A stretch of DNA of 64,000 nucleotides from Catajapyx aquilonaris (GCA_000934665.2 KZ537982.1:124001-188000); one strand, 5' to 3'. Shown: positions 30,501 through 63,851, counted from the stretch's first letter. Numbers and translations are program-made. Notes: generated from the sequence alone by a model not told the origin.

Positions 30501-33500
30501 AGTTACAAAAAAGGCGTGAGGGAAAAGGGTCTATAACCTCTGATATAATTTTCGCAGTTTCTGGTTTAGGAAACATCGATTTTCGCTTCGGGCTTAACTC
30601 TTACCTGCACTTTAGCCAGGGAGTTAATATCCTGGCGTCAAAATGTGGTCTTTCCAAGTTGATGGTCAGTTAACTTAATCCGTGGGGTTGGGCTGGGTCC
30701 TGACCAGCAGGCTGGAAAAGGGGCAGATGGGATGCGAGCTAGTTAGGGTAGTGGCTTTTTTGGGGGGATAGGACCAGGGGGAGGCTGGATGGGAATTTTT
30801 CATCGATCAAGGAGATCGGATGGCTGGCTCCTCCAAACACCCACACTGATCCAGTTACCAGGAGCATCAGGATAGAGATGGTTCTGATGCACCGGCTGGA
30901 CCGGACTTGTATCCAGAACAGAACTGAATAAGCGTAATGTGCAAAAGGAACTTAACGACATATGATATTGTTATATGTTATTCAAGTGTAGGTTGCGATA
31001 GGTTGGCTGGTTTTAAAAGAAGAGTAGAGTACCATGTTCAAAGGGTGCAAATGAAGCAGGGAGGAGTTGCATTGCTTGGGAATATTTTTGGGGGAAATGT
31101 GCCTTTCAGGCAGTTTCGGTCTGAAATGCTGACTTGATTAAGTTTAATTGCCTTCAGCAACAGTTTGCGTCTTAGTTCCTGGCCAATTTTCCTTGAGAGC
31201 CTCCGAACTGCTTATTGATGTTTGCTCCTTTCCTGCTCCCAGAGTCTAATATCCTGGGCCTACAAATGGGTGGCTATAACTCACAATGCAAATGAGGGGT
31301 TTCTGGGGTGACATTTCTAACTCTTGATACCACCCTTCCATATTGACAGACATAACAGACCTTGGAGGGAGAATTTATGGCCATGTTATGAACAGGCTTA
31401 ATGCTCCTTAAAGTTGCTTCCAAGTGTTAGGATGATAGTGAACTGGATATTGAAGGATACACTCTCGTTCTAGGTTTATTTGTGGGTGCCATCATCCGGT
31501 ACACCGTGACAGAAGAGCACATCACCATCATGCAAGTGGCACCACTGGGAGGACCAAGGATCAATCTGACCGTGCCACCTGACAGGCTTTGGATAAGCAT
31601 GAGCAGAAAGGACGTGAAGGATACAGCGTTCACCAACAAAACTTACCAGTACAACTTTAGAGGTGAAGTTACCTCGGGAGATAGCAACAATGAAATTGAG
31701 CAAAAGGTGAGGAAATATCAGTTGCATTCTTCATTGTCAGTGAGAATTTTGTGTCATGTCTGTAAAAAGTTCAAAATTGACAATTAATGCCGATTGAGTT
31801 TGCATTGTCAGCATTGCACTTTCAGTTACACTGTTACAGTGACATAATTTTCACATGAAGAAGCATCATTTTTCAAGATTGAGAGTGCAGTTTACACAAC
31901 CACGTTTTCTTTTGCAGGCAACATTTGATGCAGAGATTTTCTTTAATATACTCCTACCACCGATTATATTCAATGCAGGATATAGTTTAAAAAGAGTGAG
32001 TTTTCACAAGCTTTACCCTTTGGTACTTTGCTGGTGGGAAGTTTTCAAGTGTAATGAACTAAGTTTTTGTATTTTGTTACAGAAATACTTTTTTCGAAAC
32101 ATGGGATCAATTATGACATTAGCATTTGTAGGAACCACTATATCTTGCTTTGTGATAGGGTAAGAAACCAGTTTATCAATGCATTTTAAGAGCAAGTGTG
32201 CTGAACTTGATGCATTTTGTTTCCTTTTCAGAGGGATTCTACATCTCTTCACGAAATTAGTACCTTACCTTTCGCATACGTTCACGTTCTTGGACACCCT
32301 TTACTTTGGTGCACTAATCTCTGCTACTGATCCAGTCACAATTCTAGCTATTTTCAATGATCTTCATGTGGATGTAAATCTCTATGCGATGGTGTTTGGA
32401 GAAAGCGTGTTGAATGATGCTGTTGCTATGGTGCTCAGCGGGTGGGTACAACTTGATTTTGCATAATTCTACCACACAGCTTGTGTTTCTTGAAACCGTT
32501 TAACAATTGGATGTTTGCAGGTCTATTCAGAACTACGGGGAGAAGTACCAGCTGGACAAGAGCGGTGGTTTTGAAACCGTCGCATTTTTCAAGGCCATGG
32601 GTGAATTTGTGTTTATCTTTGGCCTCTCCCTGCTGATTGGTGCTGGAATGGGAAGTTTCACCGCTCTGATATCCTTTTATGCTTGAAACACACCAGGCTT
32701 TTCTGTGTCAATACGAGAGCTTTTTCCTTAATTGACTTTCTCACCTGACTAAATTTACCAGAGTTCGAGACTTTCCCCTCTTGGAAGCAGCCCTCTTTGT
32801 TCTCATGTCATACAGCACGTTCCTGATAGCAGAAGTAGCAGACTTGACTGGTAAGAGTTTTATAAATCATTTGGAGAGAGCAGAAATCTATTCTCAATTT
32901 TCTTCAGGAATTGTGGCTGTTCTCTTCTGTGGCATATGCCAGGCACACTACACTTACAACAACCTCTCGAGCGACTCAAGAACACGGACCAAGCAGCTTT
33001 TTGAGCTGCTCAACTTCCTGGCTGAAAATTTCATCTTCTCATACATTGGGGTGTCTATGTTTACCTTCCCTAAGCACCGGTTCGACGGTGGGTTCATCTG
33101 TGCTGCTTTTCTTGCTATTGCCATTGGCCGGGCAGCCAACATATACCCACTGATAGCGCTGCTCAACTTGGGCCGCAAGCACAAGATCCCATTCAACTTC
33201 CAGCACATGCTGTTCTTCTCAGGTATCTACCGAGACTCGGTTTTAATGACTTTGCATTATTGTTGCTTTAAAAAATACAGTACAGTACAATACAGTAGTC
33301 CCCAGTCTACGAACGGGGTTACTTTCGACCGTAAGCCAGATTTATACATAACTCTGATCCCTGAGGAACAGCACATATATGCAGCATAAAGATACTGCTC
33401 CCATGAACTGCTTTCGTAACGTGTGTTTGTTTACGTGTGTGAAAGAACATAGTTTCCCATTATTTACGAATGATGCAATATCATGTCGAACTTGGTGTCA

Positions 33501-39718: not shown

Positions 39719-42700
39719 TCAGACTTTGCCCATCCACCATTTGTGAGCGTGGCAAAGGTTGTCGCCATTCTCCACCAGCGGCAGGCATCGCCAGAATGTC
39801 ATCCGCTTGTGTGGCAGGTCAGTCTTCATTCCCAGGTCGAGGTTCAGGTTGTAGTACTTCATGCAATACGGACTTACAGGTTCCCATTGGGACAGCACGT
39901 CAAAGTCTCGCATCGGTGTTGGATTCCTGTAAGCAACATCGGGTGATACAGTACTCGTTATGGTGCAGACAGTGGCATGGTGCAGCACTATTGTATTGGA
40001 CATACCCATATTTGATGAAATTGGCCCACAATGTTGTCACGATGTCAATCATCCTGAAGTCATCATCTTGAGTCCGTGTTGCAGGGAAGAGTCTGTTGCC
40101 AAACAGGTACAGCAGCTCATCTTGCAGAGTAGGACCTGTCACAGACAGTGTTCGAGGACAATGAGGCTGTGGTATTAAGTTTTAATTTTTAACAAAATTG
40201 CCTGGGGTTCGAGCTACCAATTTCGACCCTCCATGAAACAAGTGTGTCCCAACTCGACTCCATCCTCAAAATAATGAGTCCGAATCGCACACTACAAAGT
40301 AGGTCTTCTCCCTCCCAACAAAGCCGGATGTCCCATTGTGGAATTGTGGTTTCATTATCGACAACGGAGATCGTGGCTGCGTGAGTGAGAGTGGTTGTAA
40401 CAAAGTTTGGAACCTCACATTATTTTTTCCCCCCACATAATATTCAAAGGTCCTCAAACATCTCAACAAATGTCATGTTAAAAAGGTAACATAAGGAAAA
40501 GGAAATAACATGTAAATCACAGTAGTTTGACCTTCGCAAATTTCTGCACCGGTCTACCTTGAGTATAAGGCAAGTGTAGAGTTTGGATCAGATTTTTTTT
40601 TTTTCCTTCCCTGGTAGCATTGTTGACTCCTGATAGTTCCGTCAACATATTAATCAGCAGAACATAGCCTATGATTTTACCGGTGGTGTACCCCCATAAT
40701 TACATCAAAACACATGGTATGACCAGTCTTGCAAAATTATTTTGCTACGAGCGAAACTCACAGCAGTTGGGATATAATTGAGCGAAACAAATCGGGAACA
40801 ATAATTCCTACAAGCCAATACTTCCGTCACTAATGCTCCATTATATTTTGTTAAGAAAGCATCCGCATATTCCTGGTAGAATCTCGTCACACTCTCTGGC
40901 CACTTTAATCTAAATCGTGACGTTGTCTACAGCTCACTATACCGCTAACTTCATAAGTGAAAGGCTCTTTTTATTGCTGCAATTGCATGACAGTATAATC
41001 CCCATCTAATTATATGCAAATTTTTTTACTCACCCAAATTGATGTCCTCTTCCCAGAAAGGCCGGACATACGTATTGTTGCCTCTATAAGTCAGACGATA
41101 CAGGTACGCGTTTCCTCCAGACAATGCATGTTGCCTAGCTGTTTCGTACACGGAGTAGTGGAACAGCCGATCAGAATACAGCTGCAATGAGGACTAGGTT
41201 TAAAACCGATTCTAAGAAACGTCGATCATTAATTCGGACGTACGTTAGTAAGAGCTCGCATGCTGTCCTGATTGATTGGCTTATTTCCGAAGTAAAATTC
41301 TCGGATGTCGTTGCTGACAGCATCCAGATCGGATGTCCTGTCCCGGTAATAATAGATGATTGGAAAAAGTCGCTCATATTGCGTGTCCAGCTCGTGTAGA
41401 AGCATCGTGTTGTTAATCAGACCTGAAAGTGGTGTAATTAAGCATACTGACAAATTGGACCGTAATTGTAGTGTCAAACCTATGATTTCTAGGAGACCAT
41501 CCTGGGCTGTGTTTCCGAGCAAGATTGGTATGTGGGCTGTGTCATTACTCTTGATGAGGTCGCTTGGAGGTTGGGCCAGGAACCTCTCACCTGGACCCAT
41601 TTCGACAGATGGAAGGAACACGTTGAACGGTGCCGTGTACCATTCCTACAAAATAAATTATACATGCAAATGTTCTGCAGGAGTGATGAACCAGAAGACT
41701 TACATGAAAGGCTGCGCTTTGCTGGACAATCACTGAGGCTGGAAGTCTCTGGAGACATTCCAGAAGCTCTTTGGAACTCTTCCAGCCGCAGTTGAGTAGA
41801 AGAGAGAGCTTCAGTGTTTGAGGTCTGGGGTTGACGACGTATGCCAGAGGGCTGAGGGCGGTGGCACTCTGCATGATGGCCCGATGGAACAGTCCTCTAG
41901 ACATGGGAGACATCATATGGAGATTGACTTGGCTGCCTCCAGTCACGCTGCCCATGATCGTCACCATGGAAGGATCGCCTCCAAACTTGTTAATGTGTCT
42001 CTGAACCCATCGAAGTGACTCGACCTGATCCTTCAACCCCATGTTGCCTTGAATTACGTGGTCACCAGTGCTCAAGTAACCTGCCGATGAATCAGGACAA
42101 TCAGAACACCAGTTCCACACCACGTATGACAAACTGACAAACCTAGCGCTCCTAGCCTGGAGTTGACAGTCACCAGGATGACATCATGGTTCATCAGGTG
42201 TTGAGGACTGTGGTACTGCCTATTTCCTGTGCCCCAAGCATAGGCTCCTCCATGGAAGAAGACCACCACTGGCAAAAGAGGTGGAGGACTCCCGTCTCTA
42301 GGAAGCTGGAATGCACCCTAATTAATTCCGATACCGGACATGTCTGAAGGCAAACACTTACTTGTGGAGTGTACACATTAAGATACAGGCAATCTTCCTC
42401 TCCAACTACAGCTTCTCCCTGGAAAGGGTCGATGCTGGGACAAAGTGGACCTTCTACTGTCCCATCACGCACAGTCGATCCCCACTTCGTTGCAGGCTGT
42501 GTAGGCTGAAAAGAGACAACAAGTGTTGAAAACTTCAAACCTATCTCTTTTCAAAAAGTTCTCCACATTTCAGAAACCTAGTGCAAAGTCCGGTTTTGTA
42601 GGTGTCTACTAGTGCAAGATCTACCTATGAGAATGCATCAGGACGTCAAGATACAATCCTGTTCATACACGCGGCTCGTACCTGCACCATTTGCAAATTA

Positions 42701-49538: not shown

Positions 49539-52500
49539 TTAGGATGGGCGCTTACGACGTCTGTCTTCCGGCTGAGGCGGTGGACGACAACGTGTGTCAT
49601 CTCCATTCTCCAGAAGAGGCAGGGACTTCCAGAACCTCATACGTTGATGAGGAAAGTCTTCCTTCATTCCAAGGTCCAAGTTGAGGTTCATGTACTTCAT
49701 ACAGTTGGTCTCTAGAGGCTCCCACTGAAGCAATGAGTCGAATTCGCCAGGAGGAGTTGGGTTACTATATAGAAAGTCAGATATTAGAGTGAGGAAACTA
49801 CTCATTGGAACCATTACTTACCCATACTTGACAAAGTTGGCCCACATAGTGGTCATGATCTCAACCATTTTTCGGTCCTTTGTTCCCTGTTTAAATTCAG
49901 GGGCGATGTCCATTGTGAAGAGGTACAGCATATCATCGTGTAATGTTGGACCTGTGTAGAAACATGATTAGAAAATTGTCAGGATGCGCCAAACATGTGA
50001 TACGTACGCATGTCTGCTTCTGAGCCCCAGAAAGACTTGATAAATGTTTCTTCTCCTTCAAAAGTCAGCTTGTAGAAGAAGGTAGGTGTACCGGTTGCTG
50101 CGTGCATCCTGGCTGCGTGGTATGTCGATGAATCGTACAGGCGATCAGAGTAGAGCTAGTGTAGAAATATTTGTTAGTAAATTAATGGCTTCAGTTGATG
50201 AAAGGAAGACTTACATTGACGATCGAGTCCATGGCGTTGTTATTGATGGGATTCTTTCCGAAGTAGACTTTCCTGACCTCCCTGGTGACAGCATCCGGGT
50301 CAGACGTCCTGTCTCTGTAGTAAAAACTCAAAGGAAACAACCTCTGCGAATGTTGGTCCAGTTCCTCCAAAAGTTGCGTGTTGTTGATCAAACCTGTACC
50401 AAACAATAATTGTAGTCATTCCTCACGGATCAACAATGCTCTTTACTTCAATTTCTGACCTATAATGTCAATGGCACCATCTCGTGCGGTGTTTCCGACC
50501 ATCCAGGGCACCCTGGCAATCTGGTTCTTTTTCAGCAAAGAGAAGGGGTCTTCAGACAAGAACCTATCTGGTCCTCCTTTCTCCACAGAGGGGGCGAAGG
50601 TGCTGAACGGGGCCACATACCACTCCTGTAAATGTTGACAAACACGGTCCAATATCCAGCAGATTAGGATCGCATCCCCAAATTAAAACTCACGTGAAAG
50701 GCTGAGTACTGCTGCAGGATGTCATGGGCGCTGACTCCTTGCATACAGGTCAGCAGCTCCTGAGAGTTCTTCCATGTACAATTGAGCAACAGGCCTAATT
50801 TGACCGTCTGAAGCTGAGGTTTGACCACAAATGCGATTGGAGACAATGCAGTAGCACTTTGTGATATTGCTCTGTGGAATAATCCCTTGGACATTGGCGA
50901 GAGCATGTGGTAATGCACACTGCTTCCTCCAGCAACGTGACCAACGATGGTGACATTGGCCGGGTCTCCTCCGAAGTACGAGATGTACTTCTGCACCCAC
51001 TTAAGCGCCTCTACCTGGTCCTTCAGTCCCATATTGCCCTGAATCACATGATCTCCGGTGCTCATGAAACCTGTTCAAAAAACGAGCCACTATAGGCATG
51101 ACCAGATCATAAAAGTGCGACTCTCACTAACCTAAGGGTCCTAGACGATAGTTGACCGTAACTAGAACAATGTCATGGTCCAGAAGGTACCGGGCTCCGT
51201 AGTACTTGCTGCTACCAGTGCCCCAAATGAAGGCGCCACCATGGAAGAATACCATTACAGGTATCGATGGTGGTTGACGCCCTCCTTCACGTCTCTACAA
51301 AAGGGAAAGGGGATTCATCATGTGTGTTGTGTATACATGACCCGACATACATACCCGTGGGGTGTACACATTGAGGTACAGGCAATCTTCGTTACCAATC
51401 AGTTTTTCATCGTCGAATGGGTCAAAATGTGGGCAAGATGCCCCTTCAACACTGCCATCTCTGGTTGATTGCCATGGCTCCACTGCACGAGGAGGCTGAC
51501 AATGAAATTTTAATTAAGTTGATAGGTGGCCAAACTGGATTGAACTTCCATCTGACATATATGTGGAACATTGAACTGTATGCATGATGCATCACGTCAT
51601 AAGTTTCACTTTCAGACGCTGCCAGATCCGGTGTAGACACATGTTACGCACCCTACACTTTTTACACTTATTTTCTCATTAAATCATAACGACCTGTTTA
51701 CATCTCATCATAGAGTGAAACTTTTTTTCCCACAAGGAAAGAGGTGCAATATTGCACACAATAGATTGGCACACTTTGCCATTGTCTGTATTTTAAATTC
51801 GCGAATATTAGTGTCTGGCATTTGCGTGCACCGTGGCGACAGTACCCATGAAACATAGGGAAGGAAGTTTAAAAAAATTCTTGTCTGGGTCTTGCTTCAG
51901 GTAACAGCAAGGCCACTCCTTATTAACTCAATAATAAAGGCTGCATATGAGGTGTAAAAATAAATTAAGCGTTTAGTTCTTGGTGGATGTGCATGTGAAA
52001 GTGCATGCCTATGCGAGGTTGTGTGACCTAACCTACGAGGTCATCACTGAAACGCATCAAGTGCGACACTATGACGTGCGTGCTCGCTCTAGTGTGAATG
52101 GTACAATAAATTGTGTCACTCATTAGCAGTTACCTATCAGGACATGAGCTGGAGCGGAACATATTATGTAAAAAATTCTGAATGACAATTTTAATCAAGG
52201 ACCAATTTTTTATGAAGCAAATTTGAGCTTCTCATTACCTGCACTTTTTATCCTAATGATGACATTGGTCAGGATCTTCCTTGTCCCGGGGCAGTCCGGC
52301 CAAAGAATGCGGTAATACCCTTCCATGTAAACAAAGGTCTTTGAACGACCAAGTTGGCGGAACCACTTTTTTTTACATGCTAGAACAAGTCTGCGGAAAT
52401 TACCTATACACAAAGCAAGTTTCAAACATAGAGTTCGTGTGCATTTTAAAATCGAAAGTGAAATGGACCAAAAATTGTTTGTATTTAGATCACAGTGGGG

Positions 52501-53610
52501 CATCACAGCAGGAACTAACCAGCCATTTCCTTTGTCATTATAAATCTAGGTTGGCGATTAAAAGTTTGCGAAATATTTGCCACATGCACATGTTTTTTTT
52601 CCGGGGTCCTTTTCTCCTCGGTACATATGCCAAATTTCGACCACAATGCAAGGACTCTTCTTCAGATAAGGAGAAAGGATGCTGTTGTCCAATGCGGTAT
52701 ACTAACCATGCATAATCTGAACGTGTTGCTATTTTTAAGCACCTTCATTTACAGCTTGTGGGAATAATAATAAAAAACGGAAGGACAGGATTTTATTACT
52801 CGCGTGCAACAGCAAGTGCTGCTGTATTTTAGGATGTCACGATTTGTTTAAGGGTGGTATTTGTGGGACCCGAGGTGACCATGACACTAATGGGACCGGT
52901 TAAAGAGTGCGGTTCGAATTCGGTAGAGCCTGTACTTTTACTCGTGGTTAATACCAATGTACAGTGCTGTGTAAAAATGTCTATTGACGATGTATGCAAC
53001 TTGGCGTTTAAACAAAAAAAATGACCATGATGGCCGTAACACCCGGTGAGAAATTTACTGACGCATACAATGTAATATTTTTCACTTGAAAATGAATTTC
53101 CATCTCCCACCATTATTTTTACTCACTGTTATTCTTATTGTAAATGCAATGTATTATTTGCAAGAATCTCATCAAAGAGTGTATCCCATTTTGGCATTTA
53201 TGAGTTATTTGTACCAGTAACAGACCTGGTGCCATTTAGCCATAATGAGCCAGGAAGCCAGGATTTTCTACATTCACTAGAGTCGTAAACAAATGCAAGG
53301 TCAAATATTTGTCTTCGATTATCTCAATTAGTGGATTTCACGTTTAACTGAAGTTCACTCAAATTAGAGAAATTGAAATTATTTCACCAACCAAAAATAA
53401 TTATCTCACCATAAATCTGAGCTGGCCAACCGGTGGCCTAGCATACGGTATCCCCTTGAAGGCCAGGTAAATCCTCCCATTGGATGACCTCTCCTCTGAC
53501 CCTCTGACCGACCCCAAAGGTGTGGGCACCACCGGCTGCTCCCTTGGACTTGGCTGACCCTTGACTAGACACAAGCCAAAAGCCAGCAAGACAACCACTT
53601 TTGTCACCAT
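49539..53610 (-). CDS. Secreted carboxyl/cholinesterase-family protein 2, predicted non-catalytic
   Basis: Nine exons with the same intron positions as paralog 1: 53610-53410 (FKGIPYARPPVGQLRF), 51495-51355 (EDCLYLNVYTP), 51294-51132 (FHGGAF), 51070-50694 (GHVAGG), 50625-50460, 50393-50215, 50155-50008, 49951-49822, 49764-49539. Signal peptide; frame intact. Confidence 0.92.
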
Positions 53611-56600
53611 TGCTGTCACCTCCGGTACAACGGGTATTACGAGTGAGACACACAACCTTCGCACTGGAAGGGCAGCCGTAAAATGAGGTGAGTTTGAGCC
53701 TGGCGCCCCCCTTTTTGTTACAAACGTGTGTGTGTGTCCCTCTGGTTTGAAGAACCAACCGGGAAGGAAGTCTCGTAGGTACGGCTTTCTTTTTTTTTTC
53801 CCCCGCCCATGTAGACGTCATGGTTGGGATGACAACATGCTCCCTGGACATCATGGTCACTCTGGGTATTTGACACTGAGGGTCAGGGGGTGGGAATTGG
53901 TAACTTGTAATCATCTTGTCATTTTGGGGACAACTGAATTGCTGGGAAGTTGTGTGACCAACTAGAGGATGTCATACAATGTGTACAGAGCCAAATTCAA
54001 AATGGGTTGAATACATTCCTTTTTGTAGAATATATTGCTGACATATTGAAAGGTTTGGAAATTGAGCTGCAATTGGCCTAAATTAATATTTTTCCATGTA
54101 ATATTTCTCACGTTCAGTATACAAAACAATGGGAACACTATACAACGTAGTTATTATGGATAATTCAGATTTGACCGCCTAAAGTAATTGAGTGCCAAAG
54201 GCTCACGCGATGGGAATTCTGGCAAACCTTGAGCTCTTAGTACCGTATAGTAAATTCTGAAATTGAATTGCATGATGTAAACGGATGGTAAATAATGCAA
54301 ACCTTGAGAGTTTGTTCCTGAAATTGGGAATAAATACTATATTGCAGATCCATTTCTTTTTATTCATTAATAATGCAACAAAGTGTAACAAGAATTGTTG
54401 AAGGAATTCTCCGGTTTACTTGGAAATGTTTGCACAATTCGTGAGGTGGAATACGTCACATTGCCTTAGATAAACCTATATATGATCTGGATGTATGTTT
54501 TCCTGAGGACGTTGATCCATGGAGGAAGCACCACTTCCCATTTCTGGGACCACAAGTTTGCGGATACTGCTGATGACGTAGGCTACAAAAACAGCGTCAT
54601 TCAATGAACGTATCATTTAAGACTCAACATTTATAGCTTGTGAAATTTCTGCGTACGGTACGTGCGGAGAGTCACATAAGTGCGTTGGCAATGTAATCTT
54701 GCCTTCAATTTTCCACAACCAAATCTAGAGTAAATAAGCCATAACTTATTTCCCTGAACTAGAGCACACCCTATATCAGTCAACCCAGATCTAGATATTA
54801 CAGTTTATAATATTTCCCCCCGGGCATGTACAGGTTGAGCCATGCACATCGCTCATGTTTAGAGGTAATTAGTTCCTGTGTTCCTGGACAGATGAGAAAT
54901 GAGTGTGTACAAGTCTTCCTTATAGGAATTCCCTATTTCAAAATTCCCGTCTTTTTTGAGGTGATAATTAAGGTGGTTAAAGTGAGTCAGTCGGCACGCC
55001 TTGATAACTCTAATCTTTACAAGGCCACGTATCACAATTTAAATCTTTTCAAACATTTCGCACAATTCTGAGTATAATCCGCGTCCATATTAAAATTGCA
55101 AAGTACTAAGAAAAGGCGTGTTCGCAGTAGAAGTAGCGCACTCTTACATTGGGTATTCCCAAGAACTGTTTATGCCAAAGCTTGTTTGATTTTTTGATGC
55201 AGTTCAAATTTGAAGTATGGACTTTTCTTATAGTATGTTGTGAGTGTATCAGGAAATGCGTCGGCATGGTTTGGATATCGTGGAAGCAGTTGACATGTAG
55301 CCCCCCCTTCCTATTTCGTGACCAGAAATGCCGGCAGGCCCAATTTGGCCCGTTTGAATGGAACCAGTCAGTTGGGTAACCACTCCTTCCTATTACACCT
55401 ATTCGCGTGATGCCATTTACATGCGATCTAAATGGGAGTCGACAACAGTGTTTCGGGAAGGAATCAACATTTTTTGGGGGTGTAAGAAATAGACCTCGAA
55501 TGGCTTCAAGTACTGGACAATGCATGCATGTAACACGGTTTCCCACTGAAGTGTCCTCGTCTCTTCATAGCTCAGGGTCGGAAGGATGGGTGTTGCTGTG
55601 GATGCAAGGCAATCGTGCTGTGATTAAATGATCGCTTGAATAGGATGTGACAGGGTGTAGACGTATCAACGTGTCAAAAATGGGAGCTTATTTTGGGGTT
55701 GGTTGTATAATTGACGTCATGTTGTAGGAAAGGACAGGTGAAGCGGATGTTGAGGTGCCATACACGTGTATTATTTCATTTAAACTCTTCGCCTTTCAAT
55801 TGATCTACTTTTCTAGTTGGAAACACTTTCGATATGAACATGCCGGAAACATCGGAGAGGCTGATGATTTTCTGTGTAGCGAATGGCCTGGTTTTGTGTA
55901 GACATGCTGAAATGTGAGGGCCACTTTCATTCGAATTCTACGATACAACAATGAAACGCAATTGTTCTCACAATTGTCTAGTATCTCGCTGAGGTTTAAT
56001 CGTCACTACGTGGTCACTACATTTTCGTTTCTCTTAGCATTTGTTAGTCGTTTTATAGGTTTCTATTTTTTTTAAATCTATTAGTATTGTAGCTGTGGAC
56101 TAGAGGGAGGTTGCATATGCATGAGTAGCTTGACTTACATCGCCATCTGGAAGATGCAAATTGTACTTTCAGAGAGAATAAAAAAGTCAAGGACAACCGC
56201 ACCTGACGTACAGTGCAAAAAGGTGTACATCCGTAACTCTGCACCCACACATCAAAACCTGCACTTCGTGTGTTGCACAGAGTAACTTCTGCTATCGATA
56301 TTTTATTATCGTGCTATGATGTTTTAGTACACCTTGAAGTAAATATTTGTCACTTATTGCATCTAGAGTTATTACAAAAGCACGTGTCTACTATTAGCTT
56401 TATGTTTCAATAGCATTACACTAAAGTTTATTACATTGTAGGCCTATATTTGTGTCATCTTTTCCTATATTTATTCATCGTAAACTACTCATTCTACGGG
56501 GAAATACCAAATTGTTGTTGTTGTTGTGTGAGCAGTCAGATTTATAACGCAACTTTTCAGAACTAGCAGGGGGGGGGGGNAACCAGACGCGCATATACAG

Positions 56601-56636
56601 GTTTATACCATTCACCGAGGCCATCGGTTTGACAAA

Positions 56637-57493
56637 ATGAAGATTTCGGCTCTAACATTCGGAACCATTCTGGTGTTGTCAGGAACTCTGGCAGCACCTA
56701 CTGAAGACTGGAGCACCTGCAATGAAAAGGGCCATTGGTACAGATTGGACATCGAATCTGGAGAGTTCTTGGAGACTGGTAAGAAGACATCATGCGGCCA
56801 GAACATGATTTTCTACATGCTAGAAGGTAACGACACTCACGGCATGTGTGATTGCGACTACAACCATGAGTGTGGGAATAACTTGCTCTACTGGCCCAAC
56901 CACAATCAATGCTATTGGATGCACCAACAGGTCAGTTTGTACACACTACAAGTCTCACCACTAATGGTTCGTATAATTATTATTATTATCAGGGTCCATG
57001 TGCGGATGGAGAATGGTTAACAGTTGACGACAATGGTGAGGCTCTGTGCGAACCGGATCCATGCCCAGGACACAGCAAAACTGGTGACCACGCTAGCCCT
57101 TTCTTCAGATGGTCAGACGGAGAGTGCTATCCTTTACATAAACAAGGACCGTGTCCAGAAAAGTACATTTTGTGGAAAGATGCTGATGAATTCTCGCCTA
57201 AATGTAAGGAAGGTGCAGCTTGTTCCATAGCCTTTCCTGGAGTTGCACCATGCAGGCTGGGACACCGGGTTGTGTCTATTGGAAAATGCAGTTTGACGAA
57301 TGGTAAGGCTGATAATTTTGGGGATTTATGTCGCACAGGCACAGCAAATAGCCAACTTGGTTTTGTCTGCATAGTATATAGAGACATGAATGTGCACGTG
57401 ATTTATTCTCTGAAGGTCAGCAAGTACCTGTATTTCAAGAATTTGACACTTCTATTGCGTCATAATTTGTGTAAGACGCCTATAAATAATTAG
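56637..57493 (+). CDS. Cys-rich secreted DUF4789-like protein A1; stop codon deleted, possibly decaying
   Basis: Exons 56637-56930 and 56993-57493; signal peptide; two CY-x4-QGPC modules; highly similar to A2 but with Cys2->Phe and a 70-bp deletion at 57333/57334. Confidence 0.75.
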
Positions 57494-57595
57494 CTATCGC
57501 TTGTTGTTCCTGGAAGTGGGATGCATAATCAGTTTTTAAGAGGTTTAGATTAGGGATACCGAGCTCAATAGTTACAGTCTGAAGTTTGAAAACAA

Positions 57596-58364
57596 ATGGA
57601 GGTTCATCCAGGAGCTGCCTTGTTGCTTCTCACTTGTGCTGTTCTAGTCACCGGCGCCCCTCAGGTGACGCACCCTACAAAGTGTTCCAATTATCTCCAA
57701 CGTCGAGATCCGACAAGTGGTAAATGCATCGACACGGGTGTTGGCACAGAAGGGAATCCTTGCAGGGGAGCCAACATGGCGTTTGTGACACTGGACAACT
57801 TGGGAGAGGAAGTGTACGGCGGCTGCGATTGCAACAATTGGGAGGAGTGCCATTATCGCTTGATCTATTATCCCAAGACAGATTCGTGTTACTTTATGCA
57901 CACCCAGGTGACTTATTTGCTCATAGCCTCACCGTAGTAATGTGGTAGTAATCTTGTAGAATTCATGCTATTCTTCACAGGGTCCATGTCGCCGAGGAGA
58001 ATGGTTCACCTTCAACAGGCAGGGTGATGCAGGCGAATGCAGACCCAATCTCTGCCCTGGATACGACACCGAAAATGACCTGTATTTTCCATGGCCCGAT
58101 GGCAAATGTTACCCCCAGGCGCATGAGGGACATCCTTGCCCGGACGGTTATAATTTGTTTATGCCAAGAGGTGGCTCGTTTCCGTCATGTGGCGAAGGTG
58201 TTGTTTGTCCAGCTGTCCTTCCTGTGCCAGTCGCTTGTCACCCTGGGCACCGTTATGATCATCTTGGTAAATGTTCCAAAACATTTACAAATCATGGAGT
58301 CGAAGACCTATGTGGGGGAGGCACGCGATGGCATCCGATTAGGCAAGCATGTGTGAAAGAATGA
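57596..58364 (+). CDS. Cys-rich secreted DUF4789-like protein B1 (18 Cys in mature chain)
   Basis: Exons 57596-57907 and 57981-58364; phase-0 intron splits Q|GPC as in the other intact paralogs; signal peptide; ends WHPIRQACVKE*. Confidence 0.85.
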
Positions 58365-58560
58365 ACTTGATCTAAGCACAGTTATTAGTCATGTTACTTC
58401 TGATAACTATAATGACATTTTCGTTCAGGCACAAGTGTTGCTCCATTAATGTAGTAAACGTGTATGAGTAATAAACTTTCTAATATGTATGTAACTATGT
58501 ATTAGTTTGGTTCACACTAACTGATGGGTGGTTGACCTATGTACACGTACAGTACACACA

Positions 58561-58773
58561 TATCTGATTGTGAAGGAAGGAAGTACTTACCCTACATGTG
58601 TGAAAGGAGGCGTATGTCCAGTGGCCTACCCCCTACCTGCGGCTTGCTTTCCAGGCCATCGCCTGGATCATCTTGGCCAGTGCAAGAAGACTTACAAAAA
58701 TCCAGAACATTCAGATTTGTGCAGCGATGGATCTCGCTGGCATCCGATTAGGCAGGCATGCGTTAAACAATAA
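58561..58773 (+). pseudogene. Orphan 3' fragment of a B-type Cys-rich gene
   Basis: Encodes ...CVKGGVCPVAYPLPAACFPGHRLDHLGQCKK...RWHPIRQACVKQ*, colinear with the B1 C-terminus; no exon 1, no first half of exon 2, and no in-phase acceptor seen. Confidence 0.75.
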
Positions 58774-59462: not shown

Positions 59463-59820
59463 ATGGAGGCTGCAATAATTTGTCTTCTCGCTCTTGTGGC
59501 ACTGACCAGTGGTGTTCCTATTAACATGGAAGTGGAGGAATGTTCAGATCCTCTGGAACGCCGTGACCCTGCGTCTGGTCGGTGTGCAATTGCTGGTGAA
59601 AGAGGTAAAGATAACCCTTGCAAAGGAGCTAATATGGTCCTTGTTACTCTGGATCACTTGGGAGACCATGTGTATGGGGCATGTGACTGCGACAACTTTA
59701 ACGAGTGTTCTCGGCGACTCATGTACTGGCCCAATACAAATTCCTGCTACTTCATGCATAGTCAAGTAAGTCATGCTCTGCTTTTATCAGCATTATTTTT
59801 TCCCGTGTATAATAGGACCT
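59463..59820 (+). pseudogene. B-type Cys-rich gene B': intact exon 1, exon 2 lost after the GP codons
   Basis: Exon 1 59463-59765 (signal peptide, RRDPASGRC, NPCKGANM, CDC, CYFMHSQ|GTAAGT). GGACCT (Gly-Pro) at 59815-59820 is followed by unrelated sequence. Confidence 0.7.
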
Positions 59821-59871
59821 ATAGACCTGTCCAGCGAAGACTACAAGATTCGCATCAAGCGTGATCAACCC

Positions 59872-60273
59872 GAAGGAGGAGGAGGCGGAGGAGAAAAGGA
59901 AGAAGAAGGAGAAGAATATGAAGAAGACGAATGTGAAGAAGGAGAAGAATGCGAAGAAGAAGAATATGAAGAAGAAGAATATGAAGAAGAAGAATGTGAA
60001 GAAGGAGAAGAATGTAAAGGAGAAGAATGTGAAGAAGGAGAAGAATGTGAAGGAGAAGAATATGAAGAAGAAGAATGTAAAGAAGGAGACGAATGTGAAG
60101 GAGAAGAATATGAAGGAGAAGAATGTGAAGGAGAAGAATGTGAAGAAGAAGGAGAAGAATATGAATACGGAGAATGAGAAGAACATGAAGAAGGGGAAGG
60201 AGAAGCGGAAGTGGAAGAACTAGGAGAAGGAAAAGGAGGAGGAGGAGGAGAAGAAGAAGAAGAAGAAAAGAAG
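59872..60273 (+). repeat. Purine-rich minisatellite (GAAG(A/G)AGAAGAAT(G/A)T-like 15/18-bp units)
   Basis: Tandem degenerate units reading EEGEEC/EEEEY in one frame and KKEKNV in another. Confidence 0.9.
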
Positions 60274-60994
60274 CATTGACCCGTGTGGGTCAAAGTTAGG
60301 GGAGTGATGTAATAACCCATTATTGTGTAATTGTTGTTTCAATTGCACATTCCATATTGTTAACGTTGTTGTTTGTTGGCATTTCGGATTTGTGTACATT
60401 GTCATTGTTATGATTGTTTGTGTGGTATCGTCGGATATCGTATTCCCGTTGTTAGTAACCAAGGTTGGTATCTATATCTATATTTTAGTTCGTTTGTGAG
60501 TTTGTTTGTCCCTTATACAAATCCAGGACAGAAGGCCCCTACACCGCCTTAAATTAGCATAGGCCTATACATCAAAAGAAAGAGGAAGATGAGGGGAATG
60601 CAACTATGGAAGTGATTTCCCTCGACAATGCAACCAGAAAAAAACGCGCCTCGCTTTACACCGGCGGCCGGTCAAATTTTCGATAATTTGGACCTCGAAA
60701 TATTAGTGATGTATTTGGGCCAGATATTTCATATTTAGTGACACGAATACAGACCCACACAAGTTGCAATATGTCTAGTTTGAAGCTTAGGTCATGAATA
60801 GTTCGTGAGCAAAAAAATTAGAAATAAATGAGAAATATTTAAAGCAGTGCCGGGGAGGGGAGGGGTCATTCCCCCTCCCCTCCGCCGCCTCGCGCGATAT
60901 TTTGTCCATCTCTATACCGCGGGAAGTAACATCGACAGCTTCAACAGGCCAGCGTTGGGAGATAGGCGTGGAGCTTTCACACCGTTTCTCAATA

Positions 60995-61193
60995 CAGGGG
61001 CGGATCCAGACTTTCGATTGGGGGGGGGGGGGGGGTCCCNNNNNNNNNNNNNNNNNNNNNNNNNNNNNNNNNNNNNNNNNNNNNNNNNNNNNNNNNNNNN
61101 NNNNNNNNNNNNNNNNNNNNNNNNNNNNNNNNNNNNNNNNNNNNNNNNNNNNNNNNNNNNNNNNNNNCCCCCCCCCCCTTGGATCCGCCCCTG
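60995..61193. mobile_element. hAT-type MITE spanning an assembly gap
   Basis: Perfect 14-bp inverted repeats CAGGGGCGGATCCA / TGGATCCGCCCCTG and an 8-bp target duplication TCTCAATA (60987-60994, 61194-61201); interior is an N run between G and C homopolymers. Confidence 0.88.
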
Positions 61194-62040
61194 TCTCAAT
61201 ACACCTCAGTGATAATCAGGTGTGACATTTTATTGATAGTCGTTTGGGAACACGCGTTGACGATACTGTACACAAACCGAGGCAATAAATAAAGGTGACT
61301 CGAGCCGAGTCAGGCAGTCAGTCAGTCAGTCAGTCGGCAGAGGTCTAAGAGGTAGGACCTCTCCTCTAAGTAAGTGTAAGTGTAAGACTAAAACCCACTG
61401 ACTGGCTTTCCTATAGCTCTGGTTGAAAAGAAATACATTATTTAATTAATTGTGTTTCATTTCAGGCAAGAGTACCTCTATAGGGATATAGGTCCCTATC
61501 CGCGGTCATATACTCTTGGGCCAGCAGCAACAGGTACCGACAAGAGGACTATCTCCATTTTCTATGTTGACTTCCACCACAACCACAACCTATCGTCACA
61601 TAGGGCCATACATGGGCTTTTATTAACGAAAATAAATGCACTTAGTATCGATTTAATATTATTTCAGATGCCGTGTTGTATTTTATAGCCACAGACTTCT
61701 GAGACGTGCATTTTGTGTATATTAATATGCGCCATCTGTATTTGCATGCGTATTACATTGTAGGTCTGTATTTGTGTCATCTTTTCCTTATATTTATTCC
61801 TCGTAGACTACTCATTCTACAAGGAAATGCCAAGTTGTTGTATGCACAGTAAGATTCATACAAGCTGTATGTAACGAGAAATATATATATATAAAAATGT
61901 ACTTGTGTCCCCTGGGGCCATAGTGAGCGGGGAATATTTGAATCGGTGACTCAACTTCTCAGAACTAGCAGCTTGAGCAGGGGGAAAAACAACACGTGCA
62001 TACAGGTTAAACCATTCACCGTGGCAATCGGCCTAACAAG

Positions 62041-62786
62041 ATGAAGATTTCTGCTCTAACTTTTGCGACTTTTCTGGTGTTGTCAGGAACTCTGGCAGCA
62101 CCTACTGAGGACTGGAACTCCTGCAAGGAAATGGCCCTTTGGTACAGATTGGACATTGAATCAGGAGAGTGCTTGGAGACTGGTAAGAAGACATCATGTG
62201 GCCAGAAAATGATTTTCTACATGCTAGAAGGTAACGACACTCACGGTATGTGTGATTGCGACTACAACCAAGAGTGCGGGAATAACTTGCTCTACTGGCC
62301 CAACCACAATCAATGCTATTGGATGCACCAACAGGTCAGTTTGTACACACTATACAACAGGTTAGTCTCACCACTAATGGTTCGTATAATTATTATTATC
62401 AGGGTCCATGTGCGGATGGAGAATGGTTAACAGTTGACGACAATGGTGAGGCTTTGTGTGAACCGGATCCATGCCCAGGACACAACAAAACTGGTGACCA
62501 CTCTAGCCCTTTCTTCAGCTGGCCAGACGGACAGTGCTATCCTTTACAGAAACAAGGACCGTGTCCAGAAAAGTACATTTTGTGGAAAGATGTTCATGAA
62601 TTTTCGCCTAAATGTCAGAAAGGTGCAGCTTGTTCCATAGCCTTTCCTGCAGTTGCACCATGCAGGCTGGGACACCGGGTTGTGTCTATTGGAAAATGCA
62701 GTTTGACGAATGATAAGGCTGAGAATTTTGATGATTTGTGTCGAGACAGTCACTGGGATCCAGCTACAAAGAAATGTATCATGTAG
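62041..62786 (+). CDS. Cys-rich secreted DUF4789-like protein A2 (intact, 18 Cys)
   Basis: Exons 62041-62334 and 62403-62786; signal peptide; ends HWDPATKKCIM*, followed by AATAAA about 20 nt downstream. Confidence 0.87.
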
Positions 62787-63060
62787 ACGTGGCTTTGAAC
62801 AGGTAAATAAAAGCACAGGCACATCAAAGAGCCAACGTGATTTTGTCTGCATAATATAGAGGCATGAATGTAAGCATGTCTGAAGGTCAGCAAGTAGTTC
62901 AGGAATTTGACACATTTATATTGCGTCATAATTGGAAAATCGTGTAAGAGGCCTACGTAAATCGCTTGTTGTTCCTGGAAGTGGGATGCATAATCAGTTA
63001 TTTAGCGGTTTAGATTAGGGATACCGAGCTAAATAGTTACAGTCTGAAGTGTGACAACAA

Positions 63061-63851
63061 ATGGAGGTTCATCCAGGAGCTGCCTTGTTGCTTCTCACTT
63101 GTGGTATTCTAGTCACCGGAGCACCTCAGGTGACTCGGGTGATACATCACCCTACAAAGTGTTCCAATCCTCTCCAACGTCGAGATCCGACAAGTGGTAA
63201 CTGCATCGACACGGGTGCTGGCACAGAAGGGAATCCTTGCAAGGGAGCCAACATGGCGTTTGTGACACTGGACGACTTGGGAGAGGACGTGTACGGCGGC
63301 TGCAAATGCAACAATTGGAAGGTGTTGGATCGTCAATTGATCTATTGGCCCAAAACGGATTCGTGCTATTTTATGCACACCCAGGTGACTTTTTGCTGAT
63401 ACCCTCATGGTGTTTTGTATACCCTAATAATCCCTAATATTCTCCACAGGGTCCATGTCGGCGAGGAGAATGGTTTACTTTCAACAGACAGGGTGCAGGA
63501 GAATGCAGACCCAACTTATGCCCTGGATACGACATCGATAATGGCCTGTATTTTTCATGGCCCGATGGTAAATGCTACCTTCAAGGGCACCAGAGTCATC
63601 CCTGCCCGGAAGGCTATTTTTTACGCGTAGCTGAAGGTGGCACATACCCGTCATGTGTCAAGAACAATCGCAAACGCAGAACTCTTATTGATGCTACTTT
63701 TCGGCTTCTAATGATATGTCAATCTGGACATCGTCGTGATTTTCTTGGCAAATGTAGGAGATTCAAAACGTTTAAGAATTCTAGAGTCGAAGGCCTGTGT
63801 GGTGAAGGTTTGCAATGGCATCCGATTAGACAAGCATGCTTGAAAGTATAG
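63061..63851 (+). CDS. Cys-rich secreted DUF4789-like protein B2 (16 Cys, internal RKRR)
   Basis: Exons 63061-63384 and 63450-63851. Exon 2 translated by hand is open: GPCRRGEW...PSCVKNNRKRRTLIDATFRLLMICQSGHRRDFLGKCRRFKTF...WHPIRQACLKV*. Confidence 0.85.

Follow-up and report, generated by a model that had tools for sequence, protein, structure and literature searches.

A divergent DUF4789 paralog of Catajapyx aquilonaris with a candidate convertase site ahead of its secapin-like terminal loop

Introduction

The furin consensus is R-x-K/R-R, and RKRR represents an optimal version of it for proprotein convertases. Release of the growth-blocking peptides (GBPs) of insects is the work of a serine protease, and they are not known to be cut out at a furin site.

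In the available text of PMC6439351, GBPs are peptides of 19-24 residues with the motif C-x(2)-G-x(4,6)-G-x(1,2)-C-[KR]. Mature honeybee secapin starts with YIID and holds a single bond, Cys9-Cys20, according to the accessible part of PMC7693387. A beta-hairpin has been described for the secapin-like peptides of ants and caterpillars in the available portion of a 2024 paper, which also raises the question of whether part of some larger protein gave rise to the secapin-like toxins (PMC11335235). Proteins of the DUF4789 family (PF16033) are secreted and occur across the arthropods; their function is unknown, and two members from Aedes were raised by Wolbachia, as stated in the accessible text of a preprint (bioRxiv 10.1101/2023.09.03.556149). 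Searches of the full-text literature gave no match for PF16033, and no printed link between DUF4789 and secapin was found in them.

The locus described here lies in a stretch of 64,000 nucleotides of Catajapyx aquilonaris DNA (GCA_000934665.2 KZ537982.1:124001-188000), referred to below as the window. A first-pass annotation had singled out one gene, B2, as a paralog that lacks a cysteine pair and carries a furin site ahead of a cytokine-like peptide, and had proposed a tethered-versus-released switch in which a Cys6-Cys14 disulfide holds the C-terminal module in most paralogs while B2 releases it. The present analysis adds the transcription and splicing of B2, the derived nature of its cysteine losses, their placement in an old block, the family-wide distribution of the loop and an alignment of TLIDA, the start of the B2 tail, with NIIDA of a protein matching the secapin family.

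Results

Organization of the gene cluster

Small two-exon genes encoding Cys-rich, predicted secreted proteins are arranged in tandem within the final 7.5 kb of the window, and tblastn across the window detected no similar genes outside this part. The gene models rest on open reading frames joined across introns of 62-73 nt with GT..AG borders in phase 0, and the signal-peptide-like hydrophobic N-terminus of B2 was judged by eye. All members are on the plus strand. B2 has exons at 63061-63384 and 63450-63851 (108 + 133 aa) with intact open frames; exon 1 comprises 108 codons with the signal peptide and the Cys1-Cys7 region, the intron (63385-63449) is 65 nt long with GT..AG borders in phase 0, and exon 2 contains 133 codons followed by TAG. 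The predicted precursor has 241 aa and 17 Cys, of which 16 remain in the mature protein once the signal peptide with its single Cys is removed. The canonical paralogs are B1 (57596-58364; exons 57596-57907 and 57981-58364), of 231 aa with 19 Cys (18 mature), and A2 (62041-62786; exons 62041-62334 and 62403-62786), of 225 aa with 18 Cys. The 18-Cys framework that the first-pass annotation had assigned to A2 and B1 was recovered, with 18 mature cysteines in each. Exon 1 of B2 is 81% identical to that of B1.

The remaining members are less complete. A1 (56637-57493; exons 56637-56930 and 56993-57493) is a copy of A2 with Phe at Cys2, which makes it an unclean reference. Compared with A2 it misses ~60 nt at the 3' end (62753-62813 unmatched), so that its last codons including Cys18 are replaced by a longer unrelated frame; damage to this copy is probable. 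An orphan 3' piece of a B-type exon 2 (58525-58773), with Cys13-Cys18 all present, starts 160 nt past the B1 stop, and B', a B-type exon 1 with no exon 2 after it (59463-59765; Cys1-Cys7 all present), is located ~700 nt further downstream. B' is followed by a long GA-rich low-complexity stretch (~59770-60340) and by an N gap (61040-61167). The orphan piece and B' may be remnants of more copies, or the missing sequence may have been lost in the assembly gap. Upstream of the cluster, exons of the carboxylesterase family (PF00135; E 7e-48, 9e-45 and 9e-11) were detected on the minus strand at 41229-42550, 50664-51074 and 53401-53817, belonging to at least two genes, as well as a Na/H exchanger exon (PF00999, E 6e-15) on the plus strand at 32736-33389.

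Missing cysteines, basic insert and tail of B2

At the Cys6 column (63325-63327) B2 reads TTG (Leu) against the TGC of ...NNWEEC in B1, and at the Cys14 column (63687-63689) it reads ATT (Ile). An alignment column table showed Cys6 kept in A1, A2, B1 and B', and Cys14 in A1, A2, B1 and the orphan piece. Between body and tail B2 carries a 15-nt in-frame insert encoding NNRKR (63663-63677), which is absent from B1, A2 and the orphan piece in both DNA and protein alignments and whose placement is ambiguous by a few bases. The insert contributes to the tetrapeptide RKRR (63669-63680; CGC AAA CGC AGA), which fits the convertase consensus and is the only R-x-K/R-R within the four full-length paralogs; the former Cys14 position is found 3 residues C-terminal of it. 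Rechecking codons and translation left the two cysteine absences, the RKRR site and the loop exactly where the first-pass annotation had placed them. A frameshift was considered as the origin of this odd stretch and was ruled out, as the DNA aligns in frame with dense substitutions and the 15-nt insert.

Over its whole length B2 retains 16 of the 18 Cys of B1, and 56 of the 192 aligned non-Cys residues (29%) differ. The Cys6 codon falls within a run of six residues changed relative to B1, a cluster of changes that was not significant (P 0.06). When exon 2 was shuffled, an R-x-K/R-R motif arose in 21.6% of the B2 shuffles and in 3.4% of those of B1. Given the basic composition of B2, the presence of RKRR would by itself not be improbable; what stands out in the alignments is that the site lies within an insert of 5 codons and precedes the lost Cys14 by 3 residues.

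The segment past RKRR, the predicted released module (63681-63848), is a basic tail of 56 aa, the size that had been claimed; it has pI 10.1, a mass of about 6.5 kDa, 11 K+R and four Cys (Cys15-18). The counterpart tails in B1, A2 and the orphan piece have pI 7.8-8.7 and 6-7 K+R. The Cys15-Cys16 loop of the module (63717-63758) has 14 residues and the form C-x2-G-x6-G-x-C-R, similar to both secapin and GBP loops. The GBP motif appeared in 0.8% of the B2 exon 2 shuffles. The loop C-x2-G-x6-G-x-C is present in 11 of the 12 family sequences scanned, and the full motif with the trailing K/R occurs also in the orphan piece and in the homologs P0001, P0005 and P0008. As far as these sequences indicate, the loop is a trait of the family and not of B2. 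The earlier description of the loop as cytokine-like rests on the fit to the GBP motif, which is family-wide; a likeness to secapins is more demonstrable.

The AlphaFold model of B2 exon 2 is weak, with a mean pLDDT of 61.9. In it, values below 50 were obtained for residues 76-89, that is, the last two Arg of RKRR and the next 12 residues, and a beta-hairpin was predicted within the loop (94-96/102-104). The matching linker in the model of the homolog P0006 has likewise pLDDT below 50. The low values at the B2 site may only reflect a shallow alignment.

Family membership and distant homologs

With the exons scored separately, exon 2 of B2 (28.0 bits, E 3.3e-6), B1 (29.2 bits) and A2 (36.9 bits) passed the cut-off of DUF4789 (27 bits), and exon 1 of B2 taken alone was under it with 17.3 bits. 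The columns Cys3-Cys16 align with the DUF4789 proteins P0004 (57.4 bits) and P0006 (69.5 bits), and two of these columns are the ones that B2 lacks. The look-alikes of P0006 in the protein atlas are DUF4789 clusters of Arthropoda.

The family is sparsely represented in databases. An exhaustive search with exon 2 of B1 among 1.84 billion representatives produced seven matches at E <= 1e-3, from which P0003 was dropped as an unrelated repeat protein, and a word-indexed profile search yielded 3 matches among 307 candidates. The protein homolog search with exon 2 of B2 found no orthologue of B2, either near or longer. A metagenome scan with the P0006+P0004 alignment matched 145 stretches, none of which was confirmed. 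Solved structures searched by sequence gave nothing (best E 0.97), Foldseek returned no match at E <= 1e-3, and in a wide VIA-align comparison no chain of 48,161 reached Z >= 2. The 56-aa tail used as a query against the protein atlas gave weak leads only (best 0.79).

The best match of B1 exon 2 is P0001 (E 1.4e-7, in three stretches), a protein of 160 aa with three repeats of two Cys each that matches the Pfam family Secapin with 33.8 bits. From its first residue the B2 tail aligns with the start of the P0001 repeats, TLIDA falling on the NIIDA with which each of them opens; the hhalign match to P0001 is short and weak (E 0.0014, probability 17.7%, 22 columns). Searched directly against Secapin (PF17521, cut-off 25.9 bits), the 56-aa tail gave no match at E <= 10 and no exon gave one at E <= 1. 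Secapin, reached via P0001, appears to be the nearest named relative of the loop, by a likeness that is short and weak. For the B2 tail, Pfam at E <= 10 listed no GBP-type family and only a weak match to CBM_14.

Both P0001 and P0002 consist of three tandem loop copies with acidic or basic spacers between them, and in P0002 two of the three loop units are preceded by KR. Both have the look of peptide precursors in which the terminal loop of DUF4789 proteins has been multiplied, and the KR in P0002 suggests that the loop is used elsewhere as a released peptide.

History of the B2 block

The A-B gene pair has been duplicated, and the two copies (61949-63849 against 56547-58362) match unevenly. 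Identity is 90-100% over ~62040-63300 (vs 56634-57823), a stretch that runs from gene A across the A-B spacer to codon 80 of B; past 63301 it is 75% around Cys6, 65-76% in the intron and 49-57% around Cys14. Synonymous divergence between B2 and B1 changes in the same way, with dS of 0.055 in codons 1-80, 0.46 in codons 81-108 and 0.67-0.69 in exon 2; for A1/A2 it is 0.14. The jump of both dS and identity at 63301 means that a tract of recent conversion or duplication ends ~25 nt before the Cys6 codon. What follows (63301-63851, plus strand; dS vs B1 0.46-0.69) is a block of old divergence that holds both Cys losses and the insert. Gene conversion may have produced the high-identity tract, or a recently duplicated segment may have been joined to a 3' part of greater age, and the tract's stop just short of the Cys6 site, whose state has to match that of Cys14, may be due to chance or to selection. 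In the alignments, both Cys losses, the insert and the basic tail sit together in one old block, which has kept its open frame and its splicing.

The outgroup proteins P0004, P0005, P0006 and P0008 retain Cys6 and Cys14 wherever they are covered. Since both cysteines are kept in all the other paralogs and in three of the four distant homologs, the state of B2 is derived, and the direction of change, which the first-pass annotation had called unknown, can now be given.

Expression and selection

B2 is transcribed and spliced as modelled. A contig of run X5, with a depth of 5.2, skips the B2 intron of 65 nt exactly at the modelled GT..AG borders; it covers 63244-63381 and 63447-63679 with 0 differences and spans the Cys6 codon as well as RKRR except for its last base, the contig ending at 63679. 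Likewise, an X5 contig with a depth of 62 skips the A2 intron (68 nt). The DNA run X1 retains both the A2 and the B2 introns, and in X5 the A2-B2 spacer is uncovered. The kind of run X5 is unrecorded and it was read as RNA because its contigs lack introns; it comes from another study than the probable source sample. The first-pass annotation had made its proposal depend on B2 being expressed, and spliced, intron-less contigs were found.

Two further sets of contigs bear on the number of copies and alleles. An X5 contig with a depth of 32 matches exon 1 of B2 (63148-63272) with three differences (63201, 63218 and 63242); upstream of this, 23 different letters replace the end of the B2 signal peptide, and only 30 letters join it to exon 2 of A2. 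It likely represents another expressed B2-like allele or paralog together with an assembly chimera. In A2 (62079-62650), contigs resembling a second haplotype, which differ at 8-12 positions per 160 nt and show small indels in the intron, were observed in the DNA run X1 and partly in X5; these are either alleles or the A1 copy placed at 90% likeness.

The ratio dN/dS of B2 vs B1 is 0.21 over exon 2 up to Cys13, a substitution pattern that shows the body of B2 to be under purifying selection. Higher values were obtained for mature exon 1 (0.79) and for the region from Cys13 to Cys16 (0.77). No positive selection on B2 was shown, dN/dS vs B1 being below 1 everywhere, and the values of 0.77-0.79 around both lost Cys would fit relaxed constraint as well as adaptation.

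Pairing of Cys6 and Cys14

Eight sequences can be scored at both columns. Six (P0004, P0006, P0008, A1, A2 and B1) have both Cys and two (B2 and the distant P0007) have neither, so that the losses coincide and the discordant cases are 0 of 8, in agreement with the covariation expected by the first-pass annotation. The chance of the same two sequences being the ones short of each Cys, calculated by hand, is 1 in 28, for sequences that are related and that include only two loss events. P0007 is a distant four-unit protein with no basic insert at the place of RKRR and no C-x2-G-x6-G-x-C loop.

DUF4789-type proteins are repeats of a four-Cys unit, a-b-c-d. From this arrangement a pairing scheme may be proposed with bonds Cys1-2, b-c within each unit, d to the a of the next unit, Cys6-14, Cys15-16 and Cys17-18. 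The scheme fits B1, A2, P0006 (which lacks Cys1 and Cys2), P0007 and B2 without re-pairing, and Cys14 is in it the otherwise partnerless d of the last unit. The pairs Cys15-16 and Cys17-18 look self-contained: secapin bonds its own two Cys to each other, each P0001 repeat has just two, and Cys17 and Cys18 are jointly absent in P0004 and P0007. A direct Cys6-Cys14 bond is, in our estimation, slightly more probable than not.

Alternatively, the cysteines could form local pairs (e.g., Cys3-Cys6 and Cys12-Cys14), B2 and P0007 having each lost halves of two disulfides and the widowed Cys being re-paired or free. By spacing, both Cys occupy the same d place of the unit, 6 and 5 residues after c. The AlphaFold model of P0006 (pLDDT 75.7, pTM 0.66) points in the same direction, as extended hairpin registers set Cys12 opposite Cys14 (157+180 = 161+176) and Cys3 near Cys6; these registers would favour local b-d pairs and would leave two widowed Cys in B2. 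However, residues 177-180 of the P0006 model are helical and not an extended strand, which makes the register argument weak, and local pairs require new long-range pairs in B2 and P0007 as well as an unlikely C-x-C pair in P0006. We regard local pairing as possible though doubtful. It concerns the bond only and is compatible with either reading of RKRR. Whichever the partner, it lies N-terminal of the site and Cys14 C-terminal, so the loss of Cys14 is needed for a cut tail to leave.

Discussion

Based on the evidence above, it can be tentatively hypothesized that B2 is a pro-protein releasing a 56-residue basic peptide with two disulfide loops. DUF4789 proteins would consist of beta-hairpins stacked and stapled by disulfides, with a secapin-like disulfide loop and a second small loop at the end, and, in canonical members, Cys14 at the entry of the C-terminal module would tie this module to the body, most simply via Cys6-Cys14. 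In the B2 lineage, the block 63301-63851 would have gathered four derived changes: loss of Cys6, loss of Cys14, the 5-codon RKRR insert and 4-5 more Lys/Arg in the tail. A furin-type convertase of the secretory pathway would then cut after RKRR, leaving the body and a free, strongly basic 56-residue peptide starting with TLIDA, and B2 would act as the pro-protein of a secapin-like peptide. That Cys6 and Cys14 are bonded, that RKRR is exposed and cut, that the tail is released and that the peptide might serve in signalling or defence are steps that we infer. The tethered-versus-released proposal of the first-pass annotation gained from the expression of B2, the derived direction of its changes and the covariation of the two columns, and its cytokine label rests on a family-wide motif. 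The term switch was overstated: the other paralogs have no basic site at that place and are simply uncleaved domains.

Alternatively, B2 may be a working, uncleaved DUF4789 variant with one disulfide fewer, in which the basic insert and tail alter a surface that binds, e.g., acidic glycans, membranes or a partner, and the C-terminal module stays part of the protein. A body under purifying selection (dN/dS 0.21) is what a protein functioning as a whole would display, the loop module is integral to 11 of 12 family sequences, and a chance R-x-K/R-R is common in so basic a sequence, as the shuffles of exon 2 indicate. Yet in RKRR a predicted secreted protein carries the convertase consensus in its optimal form, and the pLDDT values below 50 set in inside this site. 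The insert falls exactly between body and module, beside the lost tether, and a cut there would yield an N-terminus like the one with which secapin-type units open. An uncleaved B2 is a reading that we hold to be plausible, with considerable doubt. That B2 is drifting towards loss, its missing Cys, insert and basic residues being neutral damage in a redundant tandem copy, is improbable, for although dN/dS is 0.79 in mature exon 1 and 0.77 in Cys13-Cys16, DNA identity to B1 in 63657-63760 (45%) is below that of the intron (63%) and the spacer (72%), and the neighbours A1, the orphan piece and B' are visibly broken, B2 has kept its frame and splice sites intact after a dS of ~0.7, a body dN/dS of 0.21, an even number of Cys (16 of 18) and a spliced transcript.

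Returning to B2 as a pro-protein, shedding of the tail would provide a first mechanistic handle on an arthropod-wide secreted family, namely a body plus a releasable peptide. It would also offer a natural experiment on the co-evolution of a disulfide tether and a convertase site, and a candidate for the birth of secapin-type venom or defence peptides from domains of larger proteins. If B2 is uncut, it is merely a divergent paralog in a fast-turning tandem cluster. A broader and rather unlikely extension is that the DUF4789 terminal loop is the evolutionary source of secapin-type peptides, with B2 as a living intermediate, in which one domain would have been freed of its disulfide tether and given a convertase site so that the larger parent became a pro-peptide, and tandem precursors of the P0001/P0002 type as later steps; if true, this would answer the question of an origin from a segment of a larger protein, raised for the secapin-like toxins of caterpillars and ants in the available text of PMC11335235.

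Comparison with known systems

The closest described system is the DUF4789 family itself. The proteins of the cluster have the same Cys framework as P0004, P0006 and P0008, and the place of their intron is the same as that of the read-through in P0008. B2 is unlike other members in that two framework Cys are missing, a basic insert with a convertase site is present and the tail is much more basic, a combination found in 0 of the other 11 sequences.

The likeness to GBP/ENF peptides consists in the fit of the B2 loop to the motif and in the position of the active part (in B2 a putative one), which is at the C-terminal end of a secreted precursor in both cases. In contrast, the match is one of motif only, and the same motif is satisfied by uncleaved relatives (the orphan piece, P0005 and P0008); the B2 module has 56 aa vs the 19-24 residues of GBPs.

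Like furin-type pro-proteins, B2 is predicted to be secreted and has an R-x-K/R-R within a linker, and no Cys bridge is predicted to span the site. In such pro-proteins the product is released only if no disulfide spans the site, and the B2 tail could, in addition, be held non-covalently.

With secapins, B2 would share a single-disulfide loop C-x-P-G-...-G-x-C, a hydrophobic x-I-I-D start, a basic charge and a predicted hairpin in the loop. It differs in having Q-S where secapins have P-P or x-P, and in a module of 56 aa with four Cys and a second loop, the mature secapin peptide having ~25 aa. Finally, secapin is carried on a short propeptide, whereas the B2 module is attached to a Cys-rich body of 180 residues.
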